Assembly (NCBI GenBank): GCA_965243185.1
Contig: OZ251531.1
Location: forward strand, 543,665 to 607,664
DNA from: Dehalococcoidia bacterium
GTDB lineage: Bacteria > Chloroflexota > Dehalococcoidia > Lucifugimonadales > UBA3495
Direction of reading: 5' to 3'
DNA: 64,000 nucleotides
Below, piece after piece: positions 17,262-62,847 of this stretch (the stretch's first letter is position 1; each line of letters starts with the position of its first letter). The translations under genes and the position numbers were made by a program. Below the pieces are notes generated by a model. That model was given only the letters and a program-made list of their open reading frames with translations. It was not told where the DNA came from and searched no databases.

Positions 17262-18320
17262 TTAACTCGAAACCGCAGCCGCCCGCCCAGCCGCGCTTCC
17301 CTCGCCCAAGCCAATCAAATCCGGCATTCCAGTCAGCTGCTGTTCCAGCAAAGCGGCGAATTGGGCTAGTTTTTCCGGAGTATGAGGAGCTTGCCCGCTG
17401 AGCCGGCCCACAATTTCGGCGGTGTCCAGCGTGCCGGCGTTGACCAGCAGCAGCGGAATGGCGCGTTTGCGGGCCTCAACCTGGATATATTCGGTAGGGA
17501 CATCGCCGCCGGTCAGAATTAAGCAACGGGTATCCCCCTGCAAACTTGCCATTTGGATGTCGGGCCGGGCCGCCCGGGTGATAACCCCTTGCGCCGCGTG
17601 ACGGCCGAAATAGTTGGGGCCAGAGTCCATAATGTTGCCGCCGATTAGAAAGTGTTCAATAGCAACGGCCGGGTCCGCCGGCTCCTGTAGCCAGCGACCC
17701 TCCAGCTGTTCGGCTAACTGTTGCAGCGTAGTCGCTAACATTTGCCGGCTTTCCGGGATGGCGCCCAAGACCGGCAAGCCCCGGGCCCGCAGCGGCGACA
17801 GGATTTCTTGTTCGGTTTCATACCGGCGGTGTCTAGTTACACCGTTAATGATGATGCCGCCCAAGTCGCTGCCGATGGTTTGGGCAATAGCGGCGATTTC
17901 CGCTGCCTGCACCGCCGGGGCTATGCCGGCATCATAAGCATACCAGAGCAGCACCGGGTAACCCGGCAAAGCTGGGGAAACGGCGGCCGTGGCCGGCGCC
18001 GCCCACTCGACCAGTACCAGATTAAAGGCGGCATCCAGTTGCGCCACCGCCGCCGCAATTGCCGATTGCTGCTGTTCCGTCAAAGGCAAGGCGTCCCTTG
18101 CCGGGTCGAACGGCTGGGGCAGCGGCCGGGAAATGGCCGCCGGGTCGGTGACCATCCTTTGCGCCATAAAAGCGTAGTCCGGATCGGTATCCGGCGCCGG
18201 GGACAAGGGCTTGTACCAAGCACCCCCTTGGCCGGCATCCGCCCGGCGGGACAGGATAGCCCCGGCCAGCGCAGTTTTTCCGGCAGCGGCGCGATTGGCA
18301 ACAATTTGCAGTACGGTCAA
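17262..18320 (-). CDS. DRTGG domain protein resembling the N-terminal half of phosphotransacetylase (P-loop/DTBS-like + DRTGG)
   Basis: 352 aa; N-terminus VLQIVANRAAAGKTALAGAI (P-loop-like). C-terminal half GDTRCLILTGGDVPTEYIQVEARKRAIPLLLVNAGTLDTAEIV is typical DRTGG. Confidence 0.6.
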   Translation of the reverse strand: MTVLQIVANRAAAGKTALAGAILSRRADAGQGGAWYKPLSPAPDTDPDYAFMAQRMVTDPAAISRPLPQPFDPARDALPLTEQQQSAIAAAVAQLDAAFNLVLVEWAAPATAAVSPALPGYPVLLWYAYDAGIAPAVQAAEIAAIAQTIGSDLGGIIINGVTRHRRYETEQEILSPLRARGLPVLGAIPESRQMLATTLQQLAEQLEGRWLQEPADPAVAIEHFLIGGNIMDSGPNYFGRHAAQGVITRAARPDIQMASLQGDTRCLILTGGDVPTEYIQVEARKRAIPLLLVNAGTLDTAEIVGRLSGQAPHTPEKLAQFAALLEQQLTGMPDLIGLGEGSAAGRAAAVSS

Positions 18321-18547
18321 GGCTTCCTCCGGGCCGGAGACGGCATCGCCAAGTTAAAAATCCATTGTAGCACAGACCCGGTTATGCCAACCTCATCCCA
18401 TCAACCCCCGCAACCAACCGCAAGACAACCAACTTTCCCCAAACTCAAAAGTTTTGAGGGGGTGCGGGGGAACTTTTGTAAAAGTTCCCCCGCCGTAACC
18501 CCTAAAAACCAATTTACTAATTCCCGAAAATTCATCTGAATTATCCC

Positions 18548-18577
18548 TTGACAAACCTCCAAACCATCCCCCATAAT
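18548..18577 (+). promoter_or_regulatory. sigma70-type promoter of the repeated non-coding element (copy 1)
   Basis: TTGACA (18548-18553), 18-nt spacer, CATAAT (18572-18577). The same arrangement is conserved in copy 2 at 52036-52064. Confidence 0.6.
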
Positions 18578-18583
18578 AAAACC

Positions 18584-19065
18584 CGTCAAGGTTGACCTGA
18601 CCCCGGGACGCCGGGTTCTTTACGCTAAGCTTACCGTAAAACTTAATATCGCTCCACACAGCGCGCTGTGGGCCCCGCCAAACCCTAACCGGCAAAGCGG
18701 ACGCCTCAAACACTCCTTACCCCCGGGAACGGACTAAGGCCCCGTCAATCCCCACCCGGAGCAGCGGCCAACGGCAAATCCCACCCGCCGTACCAAACCG
18801 CCGCCCCAGACTACAGGAGTCGGAGCAACCCAGGTTGACTGGAGAACGGTCAACCGCGGTCGCAACACCGGGCCAACCCGCCGGCATGGCAACCATACCA
18901 ACCGGCGCCAGTAGCCACTATAAGGTAGCGCAACCGTAATCGGCAATCTGGCCGGGCAAAGCCGGAATTGGTAGCCAGAAGTCCAACCGGCGTTTGGCAA
19001 CCCACTAGGTCAGACCTGCCAACCCTTCTCCCGACAAGGCGGAAACCGCGGCCGCGGTTTCCGCC
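18584..19065 (+). ncRNA. candidate large structured ncRNA, unclassified (copy 1 of 2); strand assigned from the promoter only
   Basis: ~480 nt between the conserved promoter and a perfect 28-nt palindrome ggcggaaaccgcggccgcggtttccgcc (19038-19065). It is dense in GC hairpins. It aligns with 52071-52546 with non-3n indels, so no ORF is conserved. Homology to copy 2 starts upstream at 18437. Confidence 0.4.
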
Positions 19066-19074
19066 AACACCGGT

Positions 19075-19380
19075 ATCTCCCACTAACCTAACCTATCCTC
19101 TCCCCCATCTCCCACTAACCTAACCTATCCTCTCCCCCATCTCCCACTAACCTAACCTATCCTCTCCCCCATCTCCCACTAACCTAACCTATCCTCTCCC
19201 CCATCTCCCACTAACCTAACCTATCCTCTCCCCCATCTCCCACTAACCTAACCTATCCTCTCCCCCATCTCCCACTAACCTAACCTATCCTCTCCCCCAT
19301 CTCCCACTAACCTAACCTATCCTCTCCCCCATCTCCCACCCTAACCTATCCTCTCCCCCATCTCCCCCACTTACTCCTCC
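19075..19380. repeat. tandem repeat array: 8 perfect copies of a 32-bp unit, then a 29-bp variant and a partial unit
   Basis: Unit atctcccactaacctaacctatcctctccccc starts at 19075, 19107, 19139, 19171, 19203, 19235, 19267 and 19299. Variant unit at 19331, degenerating by ~19380. No spacers, so not CRISPR. Confidence 0.95.
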
Positions 19381-19914
19381 AACCCCGCCGCTCCCTCACC
19401 ACTCCCCCAATTCTAAAACTCCAACCAAAATTATCCCTTTTCTAAAAATCGTAAAAAACCGTATCCTTCTCTTGTTGACATCATCTTTTACCCATTGGTA
19501 ACTTCAATCCAGTTTCCGGGGCGCAGTGCGGAGCCATCAAACGCCCGCCCAACGCCACCGCAGACACCACCGTTCGGGGCGAATTCCCGCCGCCGGCCGG
19601 CCCATTTCCGACTCTGTCTCTGCCTATACCGGGTAGCGGCAAGTCTATCGATAAAGGTATCGCCAAGGCAGCTTTGGGGGTTTCCCTATACGGCGGGGCG
19701 GCTTGCTCCCCCAGGTATCCATTCCCTTTCTCTTAATTGCCCCGCAGCGGCGGAAACCCCGGCAATCCGGACCAAGAACGAGGCGTTTCTACGGACGATT
19801 ATGGCATCTCCAGCGGCATTGCCCCGGGAATATCGGTTGGGCGGTTGGGCCGCCGGCTTTACCAGCCGGCGACCGCGGCGGCGGCTTCCCGGCGGCCCGG
19901 TCAGGGTTAAGGGA

Positions 19915-35148: not shown

Positions 35149-36167
35149 CTTTTAATTGTTTCCGATACGGGGGGTAATCAGGGGAGACATTAAGGAAAAG
35201 GGAGGTAGCGGCTATGTCGAAAAGGTTGGTGCGGTCGTTGCGGGAAGTTCTAGCCAGGGTTCCGGATCCTCACCAACCCGGGGGCGGGATACTTTGGCTT
35301 TGGCGAGGGTCGCAGTTTGTATGCTATGGCCCAATGGGGGCGAGAGCACCCGGAGTTGGCCCAAGCCGAGGGCTTTACTCGGGAACAGCCCCCTTGCGTG
35401 GCGACTTTGCAATATGTTTTCCGGCGGCTGGATGTAGCCGCCTTTGCGGCCCCCTTAAGCCAATGGGCTTGGGCGGCCTTGCCGGCCGAGACAACGGCTT
35501 TAGCGGTAGATGGCAAGGCATTGCGGGGATTGCACGGGGACGAACTGCCCGGGGGCGGTTAGTAGCCGCCTATGCAGTGTATGCCGGCCAGGTGGTCAGG
35601 CAAAAGGGGGCCGGGCAGCCCAAATCTAGTGAACTGGGGGCGGGACGGGAATTTTGGCGGCAGTGGAGCTGCTGTTTCGGGAGCCGCCCTTTGGGGAAGC
35701 CTTCCCGGAGGCGTGGCAAGCCAGCCGCCACGGCGGGCGTAAAGAGCAGCGCTGGCTGCGGACTGCCACCGCCTTGACGGATTACCTGGATTGGCCGGGA
35801 TTGCAGCAAATATGCTGCCTGTAGCGCGCCCGCACCGAGCGGGGAACGACGACGGTGGAGACGGCTTACGCCATCACCAGTTTATCCCCGGAGCAAGCGA
35901 CCTTGGAGCGGCTGCTGGAAATTGTGGCGGGGGCATTGGGGCATTGAGAACCGGCTGCATTGGGTGCGGGATGTAACTTTTGGCGAGGACCGCTGCCGGG
36001 TCGGAAGCGGGGCGGCGCCGCAAGTGTTGGCGGCTTTACGCAACCTGGTCAGCGGGCTGCTGCGCTTGGGCGGCCATTGCAACATAGCCGCCGCCTTGCA
36101 GTATTACGGCTGGCGGGCCGCGGCCGCTTTGCAACTCTTGGATTTCCCCCGCGCTGACAATTAAAAG
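35149..36167 (+). mobile_element. decayed ISAs1-family insertion sequence (frameshifted/internally deleted transposase pseudogene) with terminal inverted repeats
   Basis: cttttaattgt (35149-35159) is the exact inverse of acaattaaaag (36157-36167). Transposase pieces sit in three frames: ..VPDPHQP.. / AMAQWGREHPELAQAEGF...LAVDGKALRG (N-terminal part, stop at 35562) and GHWGIENRLHWVRDVTFGEDRCRVGSGAAPQVLAALRN (C-terminal part, 35922-36164). At ~1.0 kb it looks too short for an intact copy. Confidence 0.7.
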
Positions 36168-36305: not shown

Positions 36306-38423
36306 ATGCGTAACCTTTGGCTATTGAGCGGCTTGTCGGCGGGACTGGCCGTCATCGCCCTCATTATCGCGGTCATCGCCCTGTCCGGTTCCGCCGCGCC
36401 AGCCCAAACCTCCGCCCTTCCGGACAAGTCCAACCCTACCGACTACACCGTCGCCTTTGTCCGCGAAGCCGTCCGCTACTACCAGGAAAACGGCCGGGAA
36501 GCCACCCTCAACTACTACAACTCCCGGGAAAGCGTCGACGGCTCTTGGTATGTTTTCATCTATGACGATAAAAACATCCGCATCGCCCATCCCATCCGTC
36601 CCGACCTCCTCGGCTTGCCGGTCACCGGCCCCACCGGCGTGGACATCACCGGCTACGCCTACGGCGAGGTAATGGCGGAAACCACCGCCGAAGGCCAGTG
36701 GGTCGATTATGTTTTCCTCAACCCGGACACCGGCTTTCAGCAGCGCAAACATTCCTGGCTGGTCAAGCACGACGGCATCACTTTCGGCTCCGGCTGGTAT
36801 CAGGGTAGCCCCATCCAGACCGCCGACAAATCCAACCCGGTTGACTACACCGTCGCTCTGGTCAATCAGGCCCTCCGTCGCTATGACCGGGAGGGCCGCG
36901 CGGCTACCATCAGCTACTACAATACCCCGGAAAGCGTCGATGCCGAATGGTATGTTTTTATCATCGACGAACAGGGTAAAGTAGCCGCCAACGCCGACCA
37001 ATCCCTGGTCGGCCAGGATTTGACCGGGCCGCTGGGCGTTGACATCACCGGCTATCGCTTCGGCGAAGTGATGGCTGCCGCTGATGAAAACGGCCAATGG
37101 GTGGACTATGTCTTTAACAACCCGGATACCGGCTTTCAGCAGCGCAAACATTCCTGGGTAATCCAGCGCGATGGCTTGATTTTCGGCTCCGGCTGGTATC
37201 AGGGCGCGGCGGTCCGGGCTGCCGACAAGACCAATCCCATCGAATACACCGTTTCCCTGGTGGACGCCGCCCTCCGCCGCTATGCCCGGGACGGCCGCGA
37301 CGCTACCATCGGATACTACAATACCCCGGAAAGCGTCGATGCCGAATGGTATGTTTTCATCATCGACGAACAGGGTAAAGTAGCCGCCAACGCTGACCAA
37401 TCCCTGGTCGGCCAGGATTTGACCGGGCCGCTGGGCGTTGACATCACCGGCTATCGCTTCGGCGAAGTGATGGCTGCCGCTGATGAAAACGGCCAATGGG
37501 TGGACTATGTCTTTAACAACCCGGATACCGGCTTTCAGCAGCGCAAACATTCCTGGGTAATCCAGCGCGATGGCTTGATTTTCGGCTCCGGCTGGTATCA
37601 GGGCGCGGCGGTCCGGGCTGCCGACAAGACCAATCCCATCGAATACACCGTTTCCCTGGTGGACGCCGCCCTCCGCCGCTATGCCCGGGACGGCCGCGAC
37701 GCTACCATTGAATACTACAATACCCGGGAAAGCGTCGATGGCGACTGGTATGTTTTCATCATCGAGGAAAACGGCATCCTGCTCGCCCATCCCAATCAAG
37801 CCTTCCTCGGCGAGGACTTGAAAGGCGACTTGGGCATCGACATTGCCCAATACCGCTTCGGCGATGTCATCCTGGCGGTTACTGAGGAAGGCGACTGGGT
37901 CGATTATATGAACCTGAACCCGGTAACCGGCAATCAGGAATTCAAGCAGAGCTGGGTAGTGCGCCGCGACGGCTTGCTGTTCGGCGCCGGCTGGTATCAA
38001 GCCGTGCCGCCCCTGGGCATCACCAAAGCCGACCCCCGCGCCTACGCCGTCGCTCAGGTCGAGCAAGCCACGGAACTTTACCAGTCCCGCGGCCGGGACG
38101 CCGCCCTCCAATACTACAACTCCCCGGAAAATGTCGATGGCTCCTGGTATGTTTTCATCATCGACGAAAACGACCGCCTGATTGCCCATCCCAACCAAGC
38201 CCTGTTGGGCCAGGATATGAAAGGCGACTTGGGCGTCGACTCCGCCGGCTACCGCTTCGGCACCGCAATGCTCGCCGCCCCGGCGGAAGGCCATTGGGTG
38301 GACTATGTGTACCTGAACCCGGCCAGCGGCAATCAAGAATTCAAGCACACTTGGGCGGTGCGCCACGACGGGCTGATTTTCGGCTCCGGCTGGTACCAGG
38401 TGCTGCCCAACCTCGCCAACTAA
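36306..38423 (+). CDS. exported/membrane-anchored protein with five tandem single-Cache (sCache_2-like) domains
   Basis: N-terminal TM/signal LWLLSGLSAGLAVIALIIAVIAL. Five ~133-aa units follow, each with ...YYN..ESVDG.WYVFI.D.....AHP......G.DL.G..G.D..GY.FG......G.WVDY...NP.TG....K.SW....DGL.FG.GWYQ. Confidence 0.7.
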   Translation: MRNLWLLSGLSAGLAVIALIIAVIALSGSAAPAQTSALPDKSNPTDYTVAFVREAVRYYQENGREATLNYYNSRESVDGSWYVFIYDDKNIRIAHPIRPDLLGLPVTGPTGVDITGYAYGEVMAETTAEGQWVDYVFLNPDTGFQQRKHSWLVKHDGITFGSGWYQGSPIQTADKSNPVDYTVALVNQALRRYDREGRAATISYYNTPESVDAEWYVFIIDEQGKVAANADQSLVGQDLTGPLGVDITGYRFGEVMAAADENGQWVDYVFNNPDTGFQQRKHSWVIQRDGLIFGSGWYQGAAVRAADKTNPIEYTVSLVDAALRRYARDGRDATIGYYNTPESVDAEWYVFIIDEQGKVAANADQSLVGQDLTGPLGVDITGYRFGEVMAAADENGQWVDYVFNNPDTGFQQRKHSWVIQRDGLIFGSGWYQGAAVRAADKTNPIEYTVSLVDAALRRYARDGRDATIEYYNTRESVDGDWYVFIIEENGILLAHPNQAFLGEDLKGDLGIDIAQYRFGDVILAVTEEGDWVDYMNLNPVTGNQEFKQSWVVRRDGLLFGAGWYQAVPPLGITKADPRAYAVAQVEQATELYQSRGRDAALQYYNSPENVDGSWYVFIIDENDRLIAHPNQALLGQDMKGDLGVDSAGYRFGTAMLAAPAEGHWVDYVYLNPASGNQEFKHTWAVRHDGLIFGSGWYQVLPNLAN
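36921..37718 (+). repeat. near-identical 399-bp tandem duplication inside the Cache-repeat gene
   Basis: 36921-37319 and 37320-37718 differ at only a handful of positions by eye (e.g. tttttatc/ttttcatc, gccgac/gctgac). The period is exactly 133 codons. Confidence 0.9.
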
Positions 38424-48628: not shown

Positions 48629-49993
48629 ATGGCGGAACTACACAGCTTGGGCGTCAGTGATGCGGCCGATTTGATGCGGCGGGGGGAACTGTCGCCGGTA
48701 GATTACACGGCGGCGTTGCTGGAACGGATTGACGCTTACGAACCGGACTTGCAGGCGTGGGTAACCGTGGACCGGGAGGGGGCTATGGCCGCCGCCCGCC
48801 AGCGGGAGCAGGAATTGGCGGCCGGGCAGACGCCGGGTATCCTTTATGGCGTACCGCTGGGGTTGAAGGATATTTTTTACACGGCGGGGCTGCGGACTAC
48901 GGCCTGCTCCCGGATTTACGCCGACTTTGTGCCGGAATATGACGCGACTTGCGTTGCCCGGTTGAAAGCGGCCGGGGCGGTCATTCTGGGCAAGGCGGTA
49001 ACTACGGAATTCGCCACCTCCGACCCGTCGCCCACGCGGAATCCCTGGAACTTTGAGCATACCCCGGGCGGGTCGAGCAGCGGGTCATCGGTAGCGGTAG
49101 CGGTCGGAATGTGTCCCGGGGCCTTGGGGTCGCAGACCGGCGGCTCCACTTGCCGGCCGGCGGCCTATAACGGCATTGTGGGACTGAAACCCACTTACGG
49201 ACGCATCAGCTGCCACGGAGTAGTGCCGGTAAGCTGGTCCCTGGATACGGTGGGCATTCTGACGCGGCGGGTCAATGACGCGGCTTTGTTGCTACAAGCA
49301 ATGGCGGGGTATGATGAACAAGACCCGGGTTCGGCAAGGGGGCCGGTGCCGGATTATTCAGGGGAAATGAACCGGTTTGCCGGGCCGCCGCGCTTGGGGT
49401 TGCTGAACAAAGGGTACTTTTTTGAGCGGGCAACGGCCGAGGTACGGCGGCATACTGAAGCGGCGGCGGAGCGGTTGGCGCAGGCTGGAGCGGTGATTGA
49501 GGAGTTGGAACTGCCCGCCAGTTTCGCTACGGCGTTGGGCGACCAGCGGGTGGTGATGAATGTCGAGTGCGCGGCCTTTCATCAGGATTGGTTTCGCGAG
49601 CGGGCGGCGGAATATGGGCCGCGGCTACGGGGAAACATCGAGCAGGGGCTGGCAGTATCCGGGGTAAGTTATGGGCAAGCGCAGCAGCGGCGGCGGCAGT
49701 TGCGGCCGGATCTGACCGCCTTGGCGCAAGGAGTGGATGGGCTGCTGACGCCGGCAACGCCCGCTCCGGCGCCGCGGGACTTGAACACTACCGGAGATGC
49801 GGCATTTCAAGCGCCGTGGACTTCGGCGGGGCTGCCGACCATTGTAGTGCCATCCGGATTGGCGGCGGACGGGCTGCCCTTGGGCATCCAATTAGCGGCC
49901 GAACCTTTTGCCGAGGGGCGGCTGCTGGGCGTGGCCGCTTGGTGCGCGGCGGCGCTGGGCGTGGAGCTGCGGCCCGGGGGATTTTGGGGTTAA
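48629..49993 (+). CDS. amidase (amidase-signature family, GatA-like)
   Basis: GVPLGLKDIFYTAGLRTTACS...GGSSSGSSVAVAVGMCPGALGSQTGGSTCRPAAYNGIVGLKPTYGRIS is the AS-family Ser-cisSer-Lys signature. Confidence 0.9.
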   Translation: MAELHSLGVSDAADLMRRGELSPVDYTAALLERIDAYEPDLQAWVTVDREGAMAAARQREQELAAGQTPGILYGVPLGLKDIFYTAGLRTTACSRIYADFVPEYDATCVARLKAAGAVILGKAVTTEFATSDPSPTRNPWNFEHTPGGSSSGSSVAVAVGMCPGALGSQTGGSTCRPAAYNGIVGLKPTYGRISCHGVVPVSWSLDTVGILTRRVNDAALLLQAMAGYDEQDPGSARGPVPDYSGEMNRFAGPPRLGLLNKGYFFERATAEVRRHTEAAAERLAQAGAVIEELELPASFATALGDQRVVMNVECAAFHQDWFRERAAEYGPRLRGNIEQGLAVSGVSYGQAQQRRRQLRPDLTALAQGVDGLLTPATPAPAPRDLNTTGDAAFQAPWTSAGLPTIVVPSGLAADGLPLGIQLAAEPFAEGRLLGVAAWCAAALGVELRPGGFWG

Positions 49994-50012
49994 GACGCAA
50001 GGGAGTTGGAGA

Positions 50013-50792
50013 ATGACGGAACGGTTTCTGCCCGGCGTGCCGGGCGATGAAATTATGGAGCTGCTTAAAAAGGCTCCGGGCAATGAACACGAAAGGCTGG
50101 ACAGCCCCCGGTCCTCGGCGGCCTTGGCGGTGAATGTGTTCGGTTACTTCCTGAGCCGCCCCAAGGAATTGCCGGAATTGCCGGGCTGCGGCGATGCCCG
50201 TTGGCCGGCGGAGTACCTGACGGTGGAAAAGGAGTTGCGGTTGCCCTTAAAGGGGCGGTGGCATCCCCATCCCGATGTGGTGGTAGCGACGCCGACGACC
50301 CTGATCGGCATCGAGTCCAAGCGGTTTGAGCCGTTCGACGGAAAGGGGAATAAGGTCCAAAAATTGGCCGATTCCTACTGGAGCAAAGAGGCAGAGCTGT
50401 GGGGAAAACAGATGCGGGGCTATGCGCGGGTGCGGGACCAGCTGCGGGACCACCGGGGCCGTATCTACTCCCTGAATGCGGCGCAGCTGTTCAAGCACGC
50501 TTTGGGATTGCGGGCGGCAGTGCAGAACGGCGGAGCCTATCCCGGGCTGCGGCCAATCCTCTTTTACATCTACGCCGAACCGGAGCGTTGGCCGGAGGGC
50601 GGCGAAAAAATTGCGGCGGCGGCCTTGGCCCGGCACCGAGAGGAGATCGACGCCTTTGCCAAAGAAGTAGCAAACGACGAGGTAAAATTCGTATCCTGTT
50701 CCTACCGGGAACTGCTGGAGGAATGGGTCGGCCAAGGGACGGCGGCCGTAAGCCGCCACGCCGCCCAAGCGTTAGTGCGGTTTGCGCCGTAA
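50013..50792 (+). CDS. hypothetical protein with PD-(D/E)xK nuclease-like core
   Basis: GGGAG RBS lies before ATG 50013, 20 nt after the amidase stop. SSAALAVNVFGYF...HPDVVVATPTTLIGIESKRFEPF gives a D...E-x-K arrangement. No other recognisable domain. The call is inference only. Confidence 0.45.
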   Translation: MTERFLPGVPGDEIMELLKKAPGNEHERLDSPRSSAALAVNVFGYFLSRPKELPELPGCGDARWPAEYLTVEKELRLPLKGRWHPHPDVVVATPTTLIGIESKRFEPFDGKGNKVQKLADSYWSKEAELWGKQMRGYARVRDQLRDHRGRIYSLNAAQLFKHALGLRAAVQNGGAYPGLRPILFYIYAEPERWPEGGEKIAAAALARHREEIDAFAKEVANDEVKFVSCSYRELLEEWVGQGTAAVSRHAAQALVRFAP

Positions 50793-50799
50793 GCCGGGG

Positions 50800-51789
50800 T
50801 TAAACTTCAGTTTCCAGCAGCACCTTGCGGTCGGCCAAGGGAATATCGGCGCGTATGTCTGAGGGTAGTTTGTCATAAGTGTCGACAAGATTCTTGATGA
50901 GTTCCTCGGAACCCCACAAGCGTATCTGAAAGAAAGACCGCTCGTTTTCGCGGCGTACCGCGCGGGTAAATTCGCTGAGGCTGACCAGCAAACCGTGGTT
51001 GGCGCTGAAACTGGTAATGTTGCCCTGGAGCCGGTCGTAGTCAGGCAAATCCACCGGAGAGCTGCCGGATTTTACCTGGACGCATAACCGGGGTTCGGCA
51101 AAGCCCATTTCCCCTTTGCCGGCGACGATGTCAATACCCCCATCAGCGCCGCGCCGGGTTTGCAAGGTAGTGTAGCCTTGGGCTTTGAGAATCTCCTCGA
51201 CCAGATACTCCAAACGGTGACCGGTGAATTTCTGACGGATGCGCTCGACGATTTGGTCGGAGATAGCCTCCGGCAGGTCGAAAGCACTGGGTTCATCCTC
51301 AGCAATATCGGGCGGGGGAGTTGATACGGCGGGCGGTAGCTCGCCAAGATGCTGGCGGACCACCGCGTCAATACGCTCTTGGCAGTTGGTGCGATTGACC
51401 TGGAAAACGGTCAGCTTTCCGCCGAAGCTATACAGCAAATCCTGGTCAAAGCTGATGCGGGGGATGTCCACCGCCGCCCATTCTACCGGCCGGATATGGG
51501 GATAGGACCAATCGGGTTCATAGCGGTACGGCCCGGTTATGCGGCCAACGGCAACTACCTTGTATTGCTTACGCGGCAATACCACCGTCTCCCCTACTTG
51601 CACCTCGTGGGCAAACCGCCACAGTTGCCCGGCCGCATGAGGGCCGCGGGCGTACTCGCGCAGAGCCTCCCGGCTGGGAAACTCGGTTACGCCTTTCGGC
51701 AACTCAAAATCAATGCCGGCAACGCTATTGTCAATAGCGAATTCCTCAAACTCACCCTGCCGGCCAGCCCGTACTACCCAAACTGCCAT
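50800..51789 (-). CDS. Mrr-like restriction endonuclease (C-terminal Mrr_cat) with an uncharacterised N-terminal domain
   Basis: C-terminus LEYLVEEILKAQGYTTLQTRRGADGGIDIVAGKG...RLCVQVKSGSSPV...GLLVSLSEFT matches the Mrr catalytic core (D..D-x-QVK). The first ~150 aa (VWVVRAGRQGEFEEFAIDNSVAGIDF...) are not the usual Mrr_N. GGAGAGGAGAGG RBS. Lower GC than the surroundings. Confidence 0.7.
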   Translation of the reverse strand: MAVWVVRAGRQGEFEEFAIDNSVAGIDFELPKGVTEFPSREALREYARGPHAAGQLWRFAHEVQVGETVVLPRKQYKVVAVGRITGPYRYEPDWSYPHIRPVEWAAVDIPRISFDQDLLYSFGGKLTVFQVNRTNCQERIDAVVRQHLGELPPAVSTPPPDIAEDEPSAFDLPEAISDQIVERIRQKFTGHRLEYLVEEILKAQGYTTLQTRRGADGGIDIVAGKGEMGFAEPRLCVQVKSGSSPVDLPDYDRLQGNITSFSANHGLLVSLSEFTRAVRRENERSFFQIRLWGSEELIKNLVDTYDKLPSDIRADIPLADRKVLLETEV

Positions 51790-51828: not shown

Positions 51829-52035
51829 AGATGGCAAAGGGATGGCAAACGGAACCCACCTGCGAAAAGAAAGTCCGCGTCCGCCACCGCTAACCCTGGC
51901 AACCCCAAAGGGGCGGCATCCATCCCCAAACTCAAAGTTTTGAGAGGGCGCGGGGGAACTTTATGTGACAGTTCCTCCGCCGTAACCCGTCTCCACCAAT
52001 TTTCCGCATTCCCGAAAATTCATCCAAATTACCCC

Positions 52036-52064
52036 TTGACAAATTCCCAAACCATCCCCATAAT
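52036..52064 (+). promoter_or_regulatory. sigma70-type promoter of the repeated non-coding element (copy 2)
   Basis: TTGACA (52036-52041), 17-nt spacer, CATAAT (52059-52064); the positional homolog of 18548-18577. Confidence 0.6.
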
Positions 52065-52070
52065 AAAAAG

Positions 52071-52546
52071 CGTCAAGGTTGACCTGACCCCGGGACGCCG
52101 GGTTCTTACGCTAAGCTTACCGTAAAACTTAATAGCTCCTCACAGCGCGCTGTGGGCCCCGGCCGGCCCTAAACCCGCCGCCGGACGCCTCAATACTCCT
52201 CCCCCGGGGAAACGGACTAAGGCCCCGTAATCCCCAACCGGAGCAGCGGCCAACGGCAAATCCCACCCGCCGCACCAACCGCGCCCCATCCCAAAGGAGT
52301 CGGAGCAACCCAGGTTGACTGGAGAACGGTCAACCGCGGTCGCAACACCGGGCCAACCCGCCGGCATGGCAACCATACCAACCGGCGCCAGTAGCCAACT
52401 CAAGGTCAAGCAACCGTAATCGGCAATCTGGCCGGGCAAAGCCGGCATGATGTAGCCAGCTGACCAACCGGTGTTTGGCAACCCACATGGCCAGACCTGC
52501 CAACCCTTCTCCCGACAAGGCGGAAACCGCGGCCGCGGTTTCCGCC
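52071..52546 (+). ncRNA. candidate large structured ncRNA, unclassified (copy 2 of 2)
   Basis: Aligns end to end with 18584-19065, including an identical ~105-nt core and the same terminal palindrome (52519-52546). Homology starts upstream at 51924. No tandem 32-bp array follows. Confidence 0.4.
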
Positions 52547-52641
52547 AAAACCGGTATCCCCCACCCCATATCCCCCCTAGCCAATCCCCCGCCGGTTAGT
52601 TACAATTTTAACTAATCTTTAATCAAGGGGGCGGCGCCGTT

Positions 52642-54282: not shown

Positions 54283-54304
54283 TGGCGGCGGGGCGGCCGC
54301 CATT
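54281..54304. terminator. hairpin between convergent DM13 and glycosyltransferase genes
   Basis: aatggcggc (54281-54289), loop ggggcg, gccgccatt (54296-54304). Confidence 0.45.
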
Positions 54305-54322
54305 AGCGGGAAAGGGGCGGCC

Positions 54323-57073
54323 TTACCGCTCTATCGCCAACTCGACCGCCCACAGCTGCCCTTGACCGGGAATATACTGCCCCGTCCTGATTTCGGCGAT
54401 GGGGTAGTCGGGTAGGGAAATCGTAGCCAGACATTTGCCGTCAAACCGCCCGCCTTGCCTAGCCAGGGGAAAGTCCCGGTTGGCAAAGCCGTGCGCCCGC
54501 CGCTCCGGCGGCAGGTCGGCGGCGTCCACCGGCACGATGTGCAGGAAAAACCGGGCGTCCATATCCGCCGCCGCGCAGGATTCCCGCCGGTAAATCAGCT
54601 TGTTACCTTGGCGATACAGGTCAAAAAAGCTCCGGGCGGCGGGTTCAGTGTCGGACACGGCGGCATCAGCCGCCCGCAAATCCGGCGGGTTAGCCTCCGG
54701 GTAGAAGACGCCCTCCCATTGGTCGGCTTGCCCGGTATGTATTTCGGCGATGGGGTAGTTGGGCAAGGGAACGACCGCGAAACACTGTCCCCCGGGCCAG
54801 CCGCCATAGCGGGACAAGAAAAAATCCTGATTGGCAAACCCGTACTCCCGCCGCTCCGGCGGCAACGCCGCCGGCTCCACCGGGTAAATATGCAGCTGAA
54901 ACCGGGTCTGGTAATCCCGCCGGGAACAGTCCTCTTTATAGTAAATCAGACGCTGCTTCCCCCCGTCCCCGGACTCCAGAAAAACCTCGAAGTCGCCGCG
55001 GAGGGAGATTTGCCGGGAGTTATCCCGCAGCGCCGCCACAATGTCCCCCAAGCCCGGGCCGGCAAAGCTGTGCCACTCCTCCCATTCAGCGTATTTTTCC
55101 TTCCCGGAATAGCCCTGCCCCACAATGATCTGGGCGATGGGGTAGTCGGGCAGACGAATTACTGCTAGACAGCGGCCATCCAAGCCCACCCCCAGATTGT
55201 AAAACTCTTGGTAGTCCCCAGCAGCGGGCAAACGCCCGGGGGGCTGGTTCCGGCCGGCGGGATAAACCCTCACGCCTAACTGCTTAGCCCGCTCCCCCGG
55301 CTGGCAGTTCTCCCGGATGAAAGTCAGGGTTTGCTCCTGGAAATGGACATCGTAGGGCGCGCGGATAATCGGCGGCGTAGTCCGGGCCTGGTCATAAAGC
55401 TCCCGGTACGCCGCCACCGCCGCCGGAGTCATCCGCGCGCCGTCCAGAGCCGCCAGGTTGACGACCGTATTGTTGTAAATGCGCTGGTGGATATAGTCCG
55501 AGTTAAAGGCCAAGTCCGGCCGGTGCGGGTAGCTCAGTCCATACAGCCGTTCAACCAGGGCGAAGTCCGGTTCCCGGCTCGTCGCGTTGAACTCCAGACG
55601 CCGCAGCTCCCCGGGCGGCAGAATGGCCTCCGCCGGCAGTACGCCCCGGGCCCGGGTATGCGCCCACACATTCAAAGTTTCCCCAGGGTAGCGTTCCAGC
55701 AGGGCTTTCAGCGCGTCTTGCGCCTCAAAGTTCCAGAACCCCATCTGATACCGGGTTTTCAGACGCTCCGGGGTGGTGCGATCCACCAGAAAGTTGAAGT
55801 AAATATATTGCAGGGGATGCAGCTGGATTATTTGCAGGACAATCAGCCCCAAACCCGCGCCGGCTAACCCATACAGCGCGACCCGCCAGCGGCGCTGCCG
55901 CCCGCGGAAAGCCCCGGCCAGCCAATGTACGCCCCATACCGCCAGCAGAGCAAACGGGACATACAAGTAATAGAGATGATGCCAGTCGTCGTAGGTATCG
56001 GTGCCCAGGATAATCACGGCCAGCGCCGGCAGGACGCAACAAGCCAGCAGCAAGGCGCCAAAACGCAGCCGGGTGTTGCCGAAAAACGCCCCGGGCCGGG
56101 CCGGGCCGCGCCCCATTACCGCCGCCATTCCAATAAGCCCCAGCAGCAAAACTAAAGGCGGCGTGGTGATGCTGAACCAGGTGGGCAGGTAATCCGGCGG
56201 CAGCTCCGTGGAATAAATCCATTCCCCCCGGAAAAGCAACGGCTGAATACCCAGATAGTCGGTGGTCAGCCGGAAACTGGTGACAAAGTAATCAACCGGA
56301 TTGGTCCAAAGCCAGGGCGACAGCGCGTACAAGGTTGCCGCAGCCAGCAGCGTGAACAGTCCAGCAGTCCCCAAGATGTGCCGCCGCCGCGACCGGTCCA
56401 CCGCGTAAAACCAGTCCAGTCCCCGCAACGCCCACACCCCCGGCAGCAGGATAATCCCCATAATCCGCAGGTCAGTCAAGACCCCGACCGCCACGCCCAG
56501 CAGCACAAAAGCCCCAACCGTATCCCGCCGCCAGGCCCGCTCCAGCAGGTAGAGGGCAATGCTGAACATACTGAGAAAGGGCAAATCCTTGGAGTTAAAG
56601 TAGGAATGGGCGTAAATCCGCGGATGCAGCACATAGAGCAGCAAGGCTAACAATGCCAGCAGCCGGCTGTTGAACAGCCGCCAGGTCAGCAGATAGCAGC
56701 AGAAGCCGCCGGCGATAAAGAACAAGTGCGTCAGGAATAACCGGAGCCGATGTATGTCATAGTAATCCTTTAACCCCAAGGCCCGCTCCGCCAGCAGCAG
56801 GGGCAGCTCAAAGGAAATGCCATAGACCTGATGAATGTGTGCCTTTACTTTGTAAAGGTCGCCGTGGCCCAGGATGTAGTCCAATCGGGTAGCAGCAATT
56901 CCCCGCTGCCCGCGCTCATCCCCGTCAAGGCCATAGTCTCCGGCCAAGGCCACGCCGACCAGCAGAAACAGCGCGCAGACAACCAGCGCGCCGTGGGCCG
57001 TCAGGAAATTGGCCGCCCGCCGCAAACCGGAATGGCGCCGGGATGGGGACATCAGGGGAATGCGTTCCAGCAT
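54323..57073 (-). CDS. GT-C fold membrane glycosyltransferase (PMT_2/ArnT-like, family 39/83-like) with a large C-terminal extracytoplasmic triple-repeat domain; paralog 1 of at least 4
   Basis: 916 aa. N-terminal ~440 aa has 10 or more hydrophobic helices, an acidic first loop (GDYGLDGDERGQRG) and RIYAHSYFNSKDLPFLSMF. The C-terminus has three ~95-aa modules, each ending LP(D/N)YPIA(E/Q)I..GQ. Confidence 0.7.
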   Translation of the reverse strand: MLERIPLMSPSRRHSGLRRAANFLTAHGALVVCALFLLVGVALAGDYGLDGDERGQRGIAATRLDYILGHGDLYKVKAHIHQVYGISFELPLLLAERALGLKDYYDIHRLRLFLTHLFFIAGGFCCYLLTWRLFNSRLLALLALLLYVLHPRIYAHSYFNSKDLPFLSMFSIALYLLERAWRRDTVGAFVLLGVAVGVLTDLRIMGIILLPGVWALRGLDWFYAVDRSRRRHILGTAGLFTLLAAATLYALSPWLWTNPVDYFVTSFRLTTDYLGIQPLLFRGEWIYSTELPPDYLPTWFSITTPPLVLLLGLIGMAAVMGRGPARPGAFFGNTRLRFGALLLACCVLPALAVIILGTDTYDDWHHLYYLYVPFALLAVWGVHWLAGAFRGRQRRWRVALYGLAGAGLGLIVLQIIQLHPLQYIYFNFLVDRTTPERLKTRYQMGFWNFEAQDALKALLERYPGETLNVWAHTRARGVLPAEAILPPGELRRLEFNATSREPDFALVERLYGLSYPHRPDLAFNSDYIHQRIYNNTVVNLAALDGARMTPAAVAAYRELYDQARTTPPIIRAPYDVHFQEQTLTFIRENCQPGERAKQLGVRVYPAGRNQPPGRLPAAGDYQEFYNLGVGLDGRCLAVIRLPDYPIAQIIVGQGYSGKEKYAEWEEWHSFAGPGLGDIVAALRDNSRQISLRGDFEVFLESGDGGKQRLIYYKEDCSRRDYQTRFQLHIYPVEPAALPPERREYGFANQDFFLSRYGGWPGGQCFAVVPLPNYPIAEIHTGQADQWEGVFYPEANPPDLRAADAAVSDTEPAARSFFDLYRQGNKLIYRRESCAAADMDARFFLHIVPVDAADLPPERRAHGFANRDFPLARQGGRFDGKCLATISLPDYPIAEIRTGQYIPGQGQLWAVELAIER

Positions 57074-57080
57074 AGGCCGG

Positions 57081-57089
57081 ATTATAGCA
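57081..57089 (-). promoter_or_regulatory. extended -10 promoter (TGCTATAAT, minus strand) giving a leaderless mRNA for paralog 1
   Basis: The reverse complement of attatagca is tgctataat. Only 7 nt (ccggcct) separate it from ATG 57073, and there is no SD. Confidence 0.55.
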
Positions 57090-57123
57090 TATAGCCGCCG
57101 CCATTAGCCGGAAAGGGGCGGCC

Positions 57124-59889
57124 TTACCGATCTATCGCCAACTCGACCGCCCACAGCTGCCCTTGCCCGGGAATATACTGCCCGGTCCGTATCTGAGCAA
57201 TGGGGTAGTCGGGCAAGGAAACTGTAGCCAGGCATTTCCCGTCAAACCGCCCGCCCTGCCGGGCCAAGGGAAAATCCCGGTTGGCAAAGCCATGCTCCCG
57301 CCGTTCCGGCAGCAGGTCGGCGGCGTCCACCGGGACGATGTGCAGGAAAAACCGGGCGACCGCGTCTCCCTCCGTGCAGGATTCCCTCCGGTAAATCAGT
57401 TCCTTGCCCCGGAGATACAGGTCAAAAAAGCTCCGGGCATCCGGTTCGACACCGAACAAACCGGCATCAGCCGCCCGTAAATCCGGCGGGTCGGCGGCCG
57501 GGTAGAGGATGCCCTCCCAAAGGTCGGCTTGCCCGGTATGTATTTCCGCGATGGGATAGTCCGGCAAGGGAACGATGGCGAAACACTCTCCCCCGGGCCA
57601 GCCGCCGTAGTGGGACAAGAGAAAATCCTGATTGGCAAAGCCGTGCGCCCGCCGCTTCGGCGGCAGCGCCGCCGGCTCCACCGGGTAAATATGCAGCTGA
57701 AACCGGGTCTGGTAGTCCTGCCGGGAACAGTCCCCTTTATAGTAAATCAGACGCTGCTTCCCCCCGTCCCCGGACTCCAGAAAAACCTCAAAATCGCTGC
57801 GAAGGGCGGTTTGTTGAGAGTTATCCCGCAGCGCCACCACAATCTCCCCCAAGTCCGGGCCGGCAAAGCTGTGCCACTCCTCCCAAAGGGCGTATTTTTC
57901 CTTGCCGGAATAGCCCTGCCCCACGATGATCTGGGCGATGGGATAGTCCGGCAGACGAATTACGGCCAGACAGCGGCCATCCAGGCCCACCCCCAGATTG
58001 TAAAACTCCGCGTAATCGCCGGCAGCCGGCAAGTGCCCGGTGGGCTGGTTCCGGCCGGCGGGATAAACCTTTACGCCCAAGCGGCCTTTCCGGTCGCCCG
58101 GCTGACAGTTCTCCCGAATGAAAGTCAGGGTTTGGTTCTGGAAATGGATGTCATAAGGCGCGCGGATAATCGGCGGCCTGGTCCTGGCCTGGTCGTAAAG
58201 CTCCCGGTACGCCGCCAGCGCTGCTGGGGTCATCCGCGCGCCATCCAGGGCCGCCAGGTTGACGATAGCATTGTTATAAATGCGCTGGTGGATATAGTCC
58301 GAGTTAAAGGCCAAGTCCGGCCGGTGGGGGTAACTCAGTCCATACAGCCGTTCAACCAGGGCAAAGTCCGGATCCCGGGTCGTCGCGTTGAACTCCAAAC
58401 GCCGCAGCTCCCCGGCCGGCAGAATGGCCTCCGCCGGCAGTACGCCCCGGGCCCGGGTATGCGCCCACACATTCAAGGTTTCCCCGGGGTAGCGTTCCAG
58501 CAGAGCTTTCAGCGCATCTTGCGCCTCCAAGTTCCAAAGCCCCATCTGATACCGGGTTTTCAGATACTCCGGGGTACTTCGATCCACCAGAAAGTTGAAG
58601 TAAATATATTGCAGGGGATGCAGCTGCACTATTTGCAGGGCAATCAACCCCAAGCCGGCGCCGGCTAACCCGTACAGCGCGACCCGCCCGCGCCGCCGAC
58701 CGCGAAAAGCCCCGGCCAGCCAATGCACACCCCACGCCGCCAGTAGCGCGAACGGAACATACAGGTAATAGAGATGCCGCCAGTCGTTGTAGGCATCGGC
58801 CCCCAGGATAATCACCGCCAGCGCCGTCAGGACAAAACAAGCCAGCAGCAGGGCGCCAAAACGCAGCCGGGTGTTGCCGAAAAACGCCCCGGGACGCGCC
58901 ACGCCGCGCCCCACTACTGCCGCCATTCCGCTAAACCCCAGCAGCAAAACTAAAGGCGGCGTAGTGATGCTGAACCAGGTAGGCAGATAATCCGGCGGCA
59001 AGTCCGTGGAATAAATCAATTCCCCCCGGAAAAGCAGCGGCTGAATACCCAGATAGTCGGTGGTCAGCCGGAAACTGGTGATAAAGTAGTCGCCAGGATT
59101 GATCCAAAGCCAAGGCGACAGCGCATACAGGGTCGCTGCAGCCAGTAGCGTGAACAGCCCGGCAGTCACCAGAATGCGCCGGCGTTCCGACCGGCCCACC
59201 GCGTAAATCCAGTCCAGTCCCCGCAGCGCCCACACCCCCGGCAGCAGCATAATTCCCATAATCCGCAGGTCAGTCAGTATCCCTACCGCCACGCCCAGCA
59301 GCGCAAAGGCCCCCACCGTATCCCGCCGCAAAGCCCGCTCCAGCAGGTAAAGGGCAATGCTGAACATACTGAGAAAAGGCAAATCCTTGGAATTAAAGTA
59401 GGAATGAGCGTAAATCCGCGGATGCAGCACATAGAGCAGCAGAGCCAGTAATGCCAGCAGCCGGTTGTTGAACAGCCGCCAAGTCAGCAGATAGCAGCAG
59501 AAGCCGCCGGCGATAAAGAACAAGTGGGTCAGGAATAATCGGAGCCGATGTATGTCATAGTAATCCTCCAACCCCAAGGCCCGCTCCGCCAGCAGCAGGG
59601 GCAGCTGAAAGGAAATGCCATAGACCTCATGGGGAATGTAGGGCTTTAATACCGGTATTTTGTCAAAAGTAAGGTCGCCGTGGCCCAGGATGTAGTCCCA
59701 ATGGGTAGCAGCAAGTCCCCGTTGCCCGGTCTCATCCCGGTCAAGGCCGTAGTCTCCGGCCAGGGCCACGCCGACCAGCAGAAACAAGGCGCAGACAACC
59801 AGCGCGCCGTGGGCCGTCAGGAAATTGGCCGCCCGCCGCAAACCGGAATGGCGCCGGGATGGGGACATCAGGGGAATGCGTTCCAGCAT
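57124..59889 (-). CDS. GT-C fold membrane glycosyltransferase with C-terminal triple-repeat domain; paralog 2
   Basis: 921 aa, colinear with paralog 1. The first 50 aa are identical. It diverges in the first extracytoplasmic loop (DRDETGQRGLAATHWDY...TFDKIPVLKPYIPHEVYG). Confidence 0.7.
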   Translation of the reverse strand: MLERIPLMSPSRRHSGLRRAANFLTAHGALVVCALFLLVGVALAGDYGLDRDETGQRGLAATHWDYILGHGDLTFDKIPVLKPYIPHEVYGISFQLPLLLAERALGLEDYYDIHRLRLFLTHLFFIAGGFCCYLLTWRLFNNRLLALLALLLYVLHPRIYAHSYFNSKDLPFLSMFSIALYLLERALRRDTVGAFALLGVAVGILTDLRIMGIMLLPGVWALRGLDWIYAVGRSERRRILVTAGLFTLLAAATLYALSPWLWINPGDYFITSFRLTTDYLGIQPLLFRGELIYSTDLPPDYLPTWFSITTPPLVLLLGFSGMAAVVGRGVARPGAFFGNTRLRFGALLLACFVLTALAVIILGADAYNDWRHLYYLYVPFALLAAWGVHWLAGAFRGRRRGRVALYGLAGAGLGLIALQIVQLHPLQYIYFNFLVDRSTPEYLKTRYQMGLWNLEAQDALKALLERYPGETLNVWAHTRARGVLPAEAILPAGELRRLEFNATTRDPDFALVERLYGLSYPHRPDLAFNSDYIHQRIYNNAIVNLAALDGARMTPAALAAYRELYDQARTRPPIIRAPYDIHFQNQTLTFIRENCQPGDRKGRLGVKVYPAGRNQPTGHLPAAGDYAEFYNLGVGLDGRCLAVIRLPDYPIAQIIVGQGYSGKEKYALWEEWHSFAGPDLGEIVVALRDNSQQTALRSDFEVFLESGDGGKQRLIYYKGDCSRQDYQTRFQLHIYPVEPAALPPKRRAHGFANQDFLLSHYGGWPGGECFAIVPLPDYPIAEIHTGQADLWEGILYPAADPPDLRAADAGLFGVEPDARSFFDLYLRGKELIYRRESCTEGDAVARFFLHIVPVDAADLLPERREHGFANRDFPLARQGGRFDGKCLATVSLPDYPIAQIRTGQYIPGQGQLWAVELAIDR

Positions 59890-59896
59890 AGGCCGG

Positions 59897-59905
59897 ATTA
59901 TAGCA
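59897..59905 (-). promoter_or_regulatory. extended -10 promoter (TGCTATAAT, minus strand), leaderless start of paralog 2
   Basis: Same tgctataat-ccggcct-ATG arrangement as at 57073-57089. Confidence 0.55.
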
Positions 59906-59912
59906 TATAGCC

Positions 59913-60011: not shown

Positions 60012-60056
60012 GAACTAACCGGGTGGCCCGCCGCCATTAGCCGGAAAGGGGCGGCC

Positions 60057-62831: not shown

Positions 62832-62838
62832 AGGCCGG

Positions 62839-62847
62839 ATTATAGCA
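62839..62847 (-). promoter_or_regulatory. extended -10 promoter (TGCTATAAT, minus strand), leaderless start of paralog 3
   Basis: Same tgctataat-ccggcct-ATG arrangement. Confidence 0.55.

Follow-up and report, generated by a model that had tools for sequence, protein, structure and literature searches.

A 64,000-nt stretch of a Dehalococcoidia bacterium genome (GenBank assembly GCA_965243185.1, contig OZ251531.1, positions 543,665 to 607,664; hereafter the window, whose numbering is used throughout unless a locus is named) contains two similar stretches, 18437-19074 (copy 1) and 51924-52558 (copy 2), which are members of a lineage-restricted, dispersed family of ∼560-bp cassettes that combine a promoter with a body. 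We regard it as an evenly balanced proposition that these cassettes are multi-copy genes for a stand-alone, structured plus-strand RNA, possibly a protein scaffold or sponge acting via the motif CAACC. A preliminary description of the window had proposed a two-copy non-coding element of ∼640 bp with its own promoter, a hairpin-dense body and a terminal perfect palindrome, and had considered it a candidate large structured RNA. The promoter, the helices and the non-coding character of this candidate stand, whereas its copy number and its boundaries had to be revised and a mobile element emerged as a serious alternative.

The two copies align colinearly from end to end, as had been described, with 88.7% identity over 654 columns (blastn, 18436-19083 versus 51923-52564). 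The identical core, previously put at ∼105 nt, measures 103 nt and is the longest common substring of the copies (18815-18917, corresponding to 52295-52397). Each copy indeed carries TTGACA-N17/18-CATAAT with 11 of 12 consensus matches and a perfect terminal palindrome of 28 nt, GGCGGAAACCGCGGCCGCGGTTTCCGCC, at 19038-19065 and 52519-52546, respectively; these are the two most perfect hairpin palindromes of the 64-kb window. Searching the window with an nhmmer profile of the family returned exactly two full copies.

The term two-copy is true of the window only. A scan of one genome per species with a 23-nt pattern from the core hairpin returned 22 loci, all in a single Dehalococcoidia metagenome-assembled genome (MAG), CBDESR01 (∼3.1 Mb), where the copies are dispersed over two contigs (2.29 Mb and 0.81 Mb) and occupy both strands. 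This count is a lower bound, i.e., there are at least 22 members per genome; for the analysis of neighborhoods, 8-kb loci (n = 22) were drawn from this MAG. Searches with blastn and the nhmmer profile beyond the window, as suggested in the preliminary description, found further homologs in this related MAG. They added three pieces to the MAG set: a divergent, 74%-identical copy (L017:3611-4097, hereafter L017b), a 5′-truncated copy (L017:1845-2278) and one that is cut by the end of its locus. The third assembly, ERZ23496117 (L032; RsmH 95% identical), breaks within a copy upstream of rsmH and thus contributes one partial copy. The window organism is related to, but different from, the MAG organism. 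Locus L003 is the positional ortholog of copy 1 and is 96% identical on the rsmH-ftsA side, and the upstream side of copy 1 is the exact point at which window and MAG cease to be syntenic (17262-18320 versus L003 and L018). The copy at L011 sits upstream of the ortholog of window gene 36306, where the window holds a transposase remnant and not the element.

Elsewhere, the core pattern GGGCCAACCCGCCGGNATGGCAA had no match in the JGI metagenomes, and none was found in viral contigs or, by distant-mode blastn, in plasmids and phages. A two-anchor 5′ pattern gave nine matches in the JGI metagenomes, which were rejected as chance matches in coding DNA, all of them lacking an nhmmer signal. Relatives with an RsmH of 74-80% identity and those with a dehydrogenase of 87% identity have no copy at either of the two loci or anywhere within 105 kb, an absence that is weakly informative at a density of one copy per 114 kb. 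Element-free relatives have flanking proteins of 74-88% identity; among the syntenic relatives, a copy is present only in the 95%-identical one, where the contig end truncates it. No clean empty site was found: left flanks differ everywhere, and the L011 site in the window is the one occupied by the transposase remnant. A literature search for a described Dehalococcoidia repeat or non-coding RNA of such kind returned nothing relevant.

The unit common to all copies spans ∼560 bp (18518-19081 in copy 1). It begins with AAAACCCGUCAAGG, finishes with ...ACCGGUAUC, and is composed of an AT-rich upstream tract, the promoter and a ∼490-nt body that ends in a perfect 12-bp hairpin and a 14-nt tail. 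Conservation was followed in an alignment of 23 copies (A2; mean column identity 91%), to which the conservation values below refer. Leftward, identity decays gradually through the AT-rich tract and drops to 29-33% further upstream, where no target motif at a fixed offset from the unit is shared. Rightward, the 14 nt past the palindrome are 79% identical, followed by 38% and then 29%. In comparison with the element-free relative L039, homology to the host promoter region resumes directly after ...ACCGGTATC, which confirms the right boundary. The flanks of the copies are ∼30% identical among each other; on the element strand they are C-rich and G-poor (37-43% C, 14-15% G) and form mosaics of small repeats of the same polarity. 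A C-rich upstream rule as a strand marker was rejected, being no general property of genes in the window. The unit has no terminal inverted repeats, its longest inverted end match averaging 5.9 nt versus 5.5 nt with shuffled right ends, and no target duplications, direct matches between the flanks of the same copy averaging 7.9 nt versus 8.3 nt between flanks of different copies. There is also no left-end hairpin comparable to that at the right end: the left end is a diffuse AT-rich tract, and the first hairpins on this side lie more than 70 nt inside the unit and are unrelated in sequence to the right one.

The promoter is of the sigma-70 type, with an 18-nt spacer in copy 1 (TTGACA-N18-CATAAT, 18548-18577) and a 17-nt spacer in copy 2 (TTGACA-N17-CATAAT, 52036-52064), and follows an AT-rich, UP-like tract with a conserved CCGAAAAT (18518-18547 and 52006-52035), all on the plus strand. 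Identity among the 23 full copies reaches 100% for the −35 hexamer and 98.6% for the −10 hexamer, compared with 62% for the initial 11 nt of the spacer, which measures either 17 or 18 nt. At the left edge of the unit, the stretch of 30 nt that precedes the −35 hexamer has a mean pairwise identity of 55% and an AT content of 60% versus 38.5% for the window. Shuffled sequences give 0.4 promoter-like sites per region, compared with the 11/12-match sites in both copies. With near-invariant hexamers set in a diverged spacer and diverged flanks, the promoter looks selected. This is the pattern that a working promoter would produce and our main argument for transcription of the plus strand. The spacer comes in discrete types, and L017b, with a body that is 26% diverged, nevertheless has a spacer identical to that of L003, indicating recombination between family members.

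Judged from its reading frames, the element is non-coding, in agreement with the preliminary description. The longest start-initiated open reading frame (ORF) common to all copies has 34 aa on the plus and 56 aa on the minus strand, so that no ORF of note is conserved across the 23 copies, and 189 of the 199 gap runs in the alignment are 1, 2 or 4 nt long and not multiples of three, in line with the frame-shifting indels seen earlier between the two window copies. The 34-codon plus-strand ORF starts with TTG, lies within the invariant core and is present in all main copies, but is frameshifted in L017b by a 1-nt insertion. A chimeric six-frame translation, aimed at ORFs miscalled on homologous elements, had no match among 5.8 billion proteins.

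A predicted structured transcript of ∼490 nt would extend from 18584 to 19079 in copy 1 and from 52071 to 52560 in copy 2. The window element folds better than dinucleotide shuffles on both strands (z = −5.3 for plus and −4.3 for minus), and RNAalifold predicts 129 consensus pairs in ∼20 helices for the plus strand of the alignment (−158 kcal/mol), with 97.9% of the cells paired. In this predicted fold, a 5′ region with hairpins P1 and P3 is followed by a multi-branch domain (P4-P11), the invariant hairpin P12 (18833-18855) and domains III and IV. From there, a single-stranded linker leads to the terminal hairpin P20 and the tail, which can pair back to 18605-18614. The 103-nt core, which includes P12 and most of domain III, is near-invariant in the 23 copies and is also the best-conserved part of the divergent copy L017b. 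The variable hairpin tips include V1 on helix P6 (18673-18705), with discrete sequence types, and V4 (18957-19007) in domain IV (P17-P19; 18942-19020 in copy 1 and 52422-52501 in copy 2). P20, a 100% complementary palindrome with a 12-bp stem and a GGCC center, is a candidate 3′-end-forming or protecting hairpin in this model. The conserved 3′ tail AAMACCGGTATC (19066-19081) marks the right boundary of the unit and can pair with 18605-18614 as a closing helix between the 5′ and 3′ ends.

Double compensatory changes occur at 14 pairs of the plus-strand model, compared with 5.4 ± 1.1 in shuffles, none of 500 of which reaches 14, and with 0-2 in slid controls. This support is spread over P1, P3, P6, P7, P9, P17, P19 and P20. 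Domain IV, with the richest covariation of the element, contributes its strongest part, and pairs 373:446, 378:440, 388:421 and 392:417 in this domain show GC, AU, UA and GU types. The compensatory change from CCGC..GCGG to CCGG..CCGG that had been suspected between V1 of the two window copies is real: the alignment pair 101:120 is G-C in 20 copies and C-G in two. Within P20, L005 and L017 show compensatory changes of CCGCGG/CCGCGG to CCGTGG/CCACGG and of A-U to C-G, and despite its 74% identity L017b keeps the fold via ∼7 compensatory pairs. The closing helix (28-37/500-509) is 95% paired and shows only one-sided GC/GU changes. A candidate pseudoknot between the P12 loop (GGAGAA) and the linker (UUCUCC) is paired in 23 of 23 copies, with two compensatory pairs in L017b, and ranks first in an exhaustive covariation scan. 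As other runs of 4-5 bp also reach two double changes, this modeled pairing is suggestive only.

The most enriched 5-mer of the element is CAACC, with 9-11 occurrences per element versus 2.1 ± 1.4 in dinucleotide shuffles (z ∼6.4, P<0.0005). Most of these sites are kept in at least 16 of the 23 copies, and the divergent copy retains eight. In the consensus model, two of 11 sites are fully unpaired and several mostly unpaired, while at the remaining sites the motif begins the 3′ strand of a helix.

V1, a middle segment, V3 and V4 are present as discrete types in almost every combination across the copies. For V4 there are ∼6 discrete types with matching stems, which are shuffled among copies: copy 2 has the V4 of L022 at 100% identity, and copy 1 that of L010 at 97%. 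Copy 1 and its positional ortholog L003 share only 70% identity in V1 and 69% in V4 although their flanking genes are 96% identical; the closer relative L032 has the same V4 type as copy 1. As orthologs differ in module types and types are shared across species, the modules have apparently been swapped between loci by recombination or gene conversion, with each type being conserved.

Small repeats accompany many of the cassettes. The palindromes upstream of the promoter, which had been taken for operator sites, belong to a separate module, M1, a ∼65-nt double palindrome (CTCAAAAGTTTTGAG plus GGGGGAACTTTTNNAAAAGTTCCCCC) that lies upstream of ∼11 of 24 copies at variable distance. M1 also occurs alone (L015:6331-6391, L021:2675-2735 and L022:5927-5992) and is thus a dispersed repeat family of its own. 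In copy 1 it consists of CTCAAAAGTTTTGAG plus GGGGGAACTTTTGTAAAAGTTCCCCC (18436-18502) and lies outside the core element; the aligned module of copy 2 (51923-51990) is degenerate. A small hairpin repeat, GTCATTCC[stem-loop]GGAATCCAGA (core ATTCCC-N8-GGGAAT), whose stems covary between copies, is found on both sides of many cassettes (e.g., L001, L005, L012, L014, L018 and L022), always in the polarity of the element, in an organization that we take to resemble Neisseria dRS3/NIME. Next to copy 1, a tandem array of 9.2 units of 32 bp (19075-19366, plus strand; Tandem Repeats Finder score 563, 98% matches) with 0% G and 54% C begins within the conserved 3′ tail and lies outside the family unit. 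Its absence from the orthologous loci L003 (MAG) and L032 (ERZ23496117) indicates a recent, lineage-specific expansion of the 3′ flank of copy 1.

The preliminary description had raised the possibility that homologs accompany a particular protein gene, and no protein family was found to recur beside the copies. The 22 8-kb MAG loci and the surroundings of the window copies revealed neither a recurrent neighboring gene nor a transposase or reverse transcriptase, and tnpA, tnpB and iscB adjoin none of the 24 copies in a search that covered their neighborhoods. The only recurring neighbors are ordinary paralogs (amidohydrolase, PaREP1-like and PMT_2-like). Otherwise the copies lie next to unrelated housekeeping and metabolic genes, including rsmH-ftsA-ftsZ, a 2-hydroxyacid dehydrogenase, a DRTGG protein, an Mrr-like nuclease, glutaminyl-tRNA synthetase (GlnRS), OTCase, L25 and a XerD-like protein. 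Both window copies are co-oriented with the next gene, and the distance to facing genes is 64-430 nt. Among the 21 scorable copies, the downstream gene is co-oriented in ∼13 and convergent in ∼8, a bias that is not significant. As about a third of the copies converge on the next gene, the element is not an obligate leader. In the window, both downstream genes have a promoter-like site of their own, rsmH at 19474 and the 2-hydroxyacid dehydrogenase at 52578-52606. The 20 copies on CBDESR010000005.1 (L001-L021) have a mean gap of 114 kb with a coefficient of variation (CV) of 0.58, more even than random (P = 0.007), and no replichore-linked orientation was seen among them.

Several further features were observed around the copies. 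The TTGACA site of rsmH (mraW) is preceded by an A/T-rich tract, and the ∼300-nt rsmH leader (19474-19800; L032:421-745) is conserved in the 95%-related assembly; this leader has no Rfam match, and no mraZ is found upstream of rsmH. The DRTGG gene, which is divergent from copy 1 in the window, has a MAG homolog of only 74% identity that is located downstream of, and co-oriented with, a different copy (L018). Directly upstream of copy 2, two restriction-endonuclease-like genes (REase-ARP and Mrr_cat; 49908-51789) occupy the place where relatives with the 87%-identical dehydrogenase carry an HTH_17 gene. On the minus strand at 54296-64000, the window contains four paralogous genes in tandem, which repeat every 2.8-2.95 kb, are 84-95% identical and code for a 916-aa PMT_2-like glycosyltransferase, and PMT_2-like paralogs also lie beside the copies in L001 and L018. 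The transposase-like remnant (35214-36164, motif ENRLHWVRDVTFGEDR) is located exactly at the L011 element position, upstream of a Cache-domain gene; its fragments had no match in Pfam. The Cache-domain gene itself (36306-38423, 705 aa) contains in-frame internal repeats of 399 bp (36423-38400; 4.4 copies, 80-91% identity).

In the model that we favor, each cassette would be an independent plus-strand transcription unit giving rise to a compactly folded, stand-alone RNA and not to the leader of a neighboring gene. Transcription would start ∼7 nt after the −10 hexamer (18584 and 52071), and the 3′ end would form at or just after the terminal hairpin, possibly helped by Rho-type termination in the C-rich, G-poor downstream flank. 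The tail would pair to the 5′ region and thereby close the fold. Recombination at the DNA level or gene conversion among the repeats may account for the spread of copies and the exchange of their parts, rather than a transposase that acts on terminal repeats. As a weaker guess and the most speculative step, the RNA could act in trans as a protein-binding scaffold or sponge through its 9-11 CAACC motifs, with V1 and V4 as interchangeable peripheral modules.

Several observations weigh against multi-copy genes for a plus-strand RNA, and those that concern the strand would suit an alternative that we consider quite improbable, namely that the minus strand gives rise to the functional RNA, which would be G/U-rich, contain GGUUG repeats and end at a hairpin plus a U-run complementary to the −10/AAAA region. 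As had been concluded before from wobble pairs, these do not decide the strand: among the 87 pairs predicted on both strands, G-U cells number 15 when read in the plus sense and 16 when read in the minus sense. The minus strand has the lower consensus energy (−182 versus −158 kcal/mol) and extra helix extensions that contain G-U pairs, as expected for a G/U-rich strand. Pair 288:359 is C·A on the plus and U·G on the minus strand in 17 copies, C-G in four and A-U in one, and the half-changed terminal palindrome of L004 and L012 forms U·G on the minus strand only. Both window copies moreover contain a weak minus-strand terminator-like site (GTCAGGTCAACCTTGAC plus GGGTTTTATT), the complement of the −10/AAAA region, although the number of such sites is not above that in shuffles. 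Other pairs instead favor the plus strand: P12 contains an invariant U·G, the closing helix has G-U pairs, and the candidate pseudoknot includes a U·G as well. No conserved minus-strand promoter was found inside the unit, where the sole promoter-like match on this strand (18946-18917, 9 of 12) lies within the body, and the right flank, which would be upstream of a minus-strand RNA, is unrelated between copies; a minus-strand RNA would also leave the invariant TTGACA/CATAAT spacing and the AT-rich tract unexplained. We thus assign the plus strand because of the promoter evidence alone, and we infer the start site, the 3′ end and the strand of the RNA from sequence. Further points against the plus-strand RNA are that P20 lacks a U-tract, that the model leaves only about half of the CAACC sites unpaired and that we know of no protein that binds this motif. 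The covariation derives entirely from paralogs of a single lineage that recombine with one another, with the divergent copy alone contributing about half of the double changes, and the helices with good support are local hairpins, which could also form in single-stranded DNA. The family is also very narrow, with no copies outside three assemblies in the collections searched, and this range, together with the presence/absence difference at the L011 site and the synteny breaks, is typical of selfish repeats.

The case for a stable functional RNA over a DNA-level repeat rests on promoter conservation in silico and on covariation among the paralogs of one lineage. Our main rival explanation, unlikely but serious, is a selfish, non-autonomous mobile DNA element with a hairpin end (IS200/IS605, IS91/Helitron, IS110 or an undescribed type) that is moved in trans by an enzyme whose gene lies elsewhere in the genome, its helices being single-stranded-DNA structures or binding sites and its promoter an outward-firing passenger or one that serves the element. 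Such an element would account for many copies dispersed on both strands of one narrow lineage, for the L011 difference and the synteny break at copy 1 between close relatives, for the 5′-truncated copy, for the strand-neutral covariation without a G-U bias and for the breaks of short-read assemblies at copies; the sharp right end, 14-20 nt past a perfect subterminal hairpin, likewise recalls IS200/IS605, IS91 and Helitron elements. It is at odds with the lack of terminal inverted repeats and target-site duplications above controls, of a sharp left end, left hairpin or upstream target motif, and of a transposase or reverse transcriptase in the 22 MAG loci or beside the window copies. Moreover, compensatory changes are found throughout the 490-nt body and not only at its ends, the hexamers are strictly conserved in every full copy though the spacer types diverged, and the variable modules are near-unchanged across species. 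It appears improbable to us that the cassette acts in cis, as a strong promoter that has been propagated (“mobile”) together with a long structured leader or insulator and that drives or buffers the downstream gene. The RNA body would then be of importance solely as a leader, a processing site or a terminator. The concept is documented (PMC3488235), the promoter features are strong, both window copies and ∼13 of 21 scorable copies aim at the next gene within 64-430 nt, and the C-rich, G-poor flanks could modulate read-through. Yet ∼8 copies are convergent without a significant orientation bias, rsmH and the 2-hydroxyacid dehydrogenase keep promoter-like sites of their own, relatives presumably express the same genes free of the cassette, and a 490-nt multi-helix body with compensatory changes far exceeds what a promoter needs. 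That the element encodes one or more small proteins is hardly credible. Candidates would be minus-strand ORFs of 56-148 codons and the 34-codon ORF that all main copies have in their core, but ORF frames differ between copies, 95% of the indels are frame-shifting, a single inserted nucleotide breaks the 34-codon ORF in the divergent copy, its conservation is explained by the invariant RNA core, and the six-frame translation has no relative in the protein collection.

A more far-reaching version of the stand-alone RNA, which we put forward tentatively and with some doubt, is an undescribed class of ∼490-nt structured RNA with more than 20 separately promoted, dispersed paralogs that the cell maintains for its own use. 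Such a class could be an abundant ribonucleoprotein scaffold or sponge with interchangeable hairpin modules; alternatively, given the even spacing (CV 0.58, P = 0.007), strongly transcribed units could be placed along the chromosome as domain boundaries. If the plus-strand RNA is real and abundant, it would be a rare case of a ∼500-nt structured RNA that forms a family of more than 20 members with swappable hairpin modules, a class of size and copy number so far represented mainly by mobile-element RNAs such as HEARO, from whose study the RNA-guided nucleases IscB and TnpB emerged. With its promoter, its fold and a candidate motif for protein binding, it would also provide a handle on the RNA biology of uncultured Dehalococcoidia. 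If the family is a selfish repeat instead, it would point to a route of mobilization outside the current categories of insertion sequences (IS) and miniature inverted-repeat transposable elements (MITEs), as it combines a conserved promoter and fold with the lack of inverted repeats, duplications and a nearby transposase. In either case, short-read assemblies break at element copies, so that in practice the repeat fragments such assemblies and marks rearrangement points in these genomes.

Comparison with known RNA families, as proposed in the preliminary description, gave no relevant Rfam family at either threshold used. For the whole window, the only match to Rfam 15 at gathering score is a tRNA at 2051-2122, and 18300-19500 gave at E<10 only sub-threshold miRNA noise on the M1 palindrome; the families covered include HEARO, group II intron, OLE, GOLLD, ROOL, raiA, 6S, tmRNA, RNase P, SRP, CsrB/RsmZ and Chloroflexi-1. 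ARAGORN found no tRNA or tmRNA in the element region. Several established classes of repeats were considered and rejected. Like a MITE, the element is short (∼560 bp), non-coding and present in at least 22 dispersed copies, but it has no terminal inverted repeats and no target-site duplications above controls. An IS200/IS605-derived element (PATE) or ωRNA cassette fails for lack of a left hairpin, a target motif and adjacent tnp genes. An ORF-less group II intron is contradicted by the lack of a match to Intron_gpII or group-II-D1D4 even at E<10, and the ends of the unit differ from the 5′ GUGYG and 3′ AY ends of such introns. The short REP/BIME, NIME, Correia and ERIC repeats are palindromic units of ∼20-160 bp, compared with a multi-domain unit of ∼560 bp here, although the small modules in the flanks (M1 and GTCATTCC..GGAATC) do fit palindromic repeats of the REP/NIME type.

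HEARO is present in many copies per genome. Our family resembles HEARO RNA/IscB ωRNA and the TnpB ωRNA of IS200/IS605 (10.1101/2023.03.14.532601) in being a large, dispersed, structured RNA-like repeat whose right end lies shortly after a strong hairpin. It differs from them in having no Rfam match, no IscB, TnpB or TnpA gene adjoining any copy, no variable 5′ guide segment, being conserved from the first base, no left target motif, and a complete sigma-70 promoter of its own. Correia elements can likewise carry promoters and be transcribed. With these and with Neisseria NIME/dRS3, REP/BIME and ERIC repeats the family shares a strictly intergenic, dispersed location in mosaics of small hairpin repeats of the same polarity, with modules being reshuffled. 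In contrast to them, its unit is 3-20 times larger (560 bp), has no terminal inverted repeats or target duplications, and contains a multi-domain body with compensatory changes as well as a strictly conserved promoter in every full copy.

Near-identical upstream regions before unrelated genes have been documented as putative mobile promoters (Matus-Garcia et al. 2012, PMC3488235). Similar promoter regions of our family also precede unrelated genes (rsmH, 2-hydroxyacid dehydrogenase, glutaminyl-tRNA synthetase and OTCase, among others); unlike putative mobile promoters, about a third of the copies face no gene, and ∼490 nt of structured body follow the promoter.

Among RNAs that act in the cell, OLE, GOLLD, ROOL and raiA are usually single-copy and phylogenetically broad, unlike our family, which is multi-copy, confined to one narrow lineage and matches none of their models. 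It is comparable to them in its length of ∼500 nt and in its complex multi-helix fold with covariation. CsrB/RsmZ (GGA) and CrcZ (CA motifs) are small RNAs that sequester proteins by repeated motifs. The family differs from these in its motif, only about half of whose sites are unpaired in the model, in having no U-tract terminator and no Rfam match, in the lack of a known counterpart of their cognate protein, and in comprising more than 20 copies as opposed to 1-5. Like CsrB/RsmZ and CrcZ, however, it combines a promoter of its own with a length of a few hundred nucleotides, many hairpins, ∼10 occurrences of a short motif (CAACC) and multiple paralogous genes.

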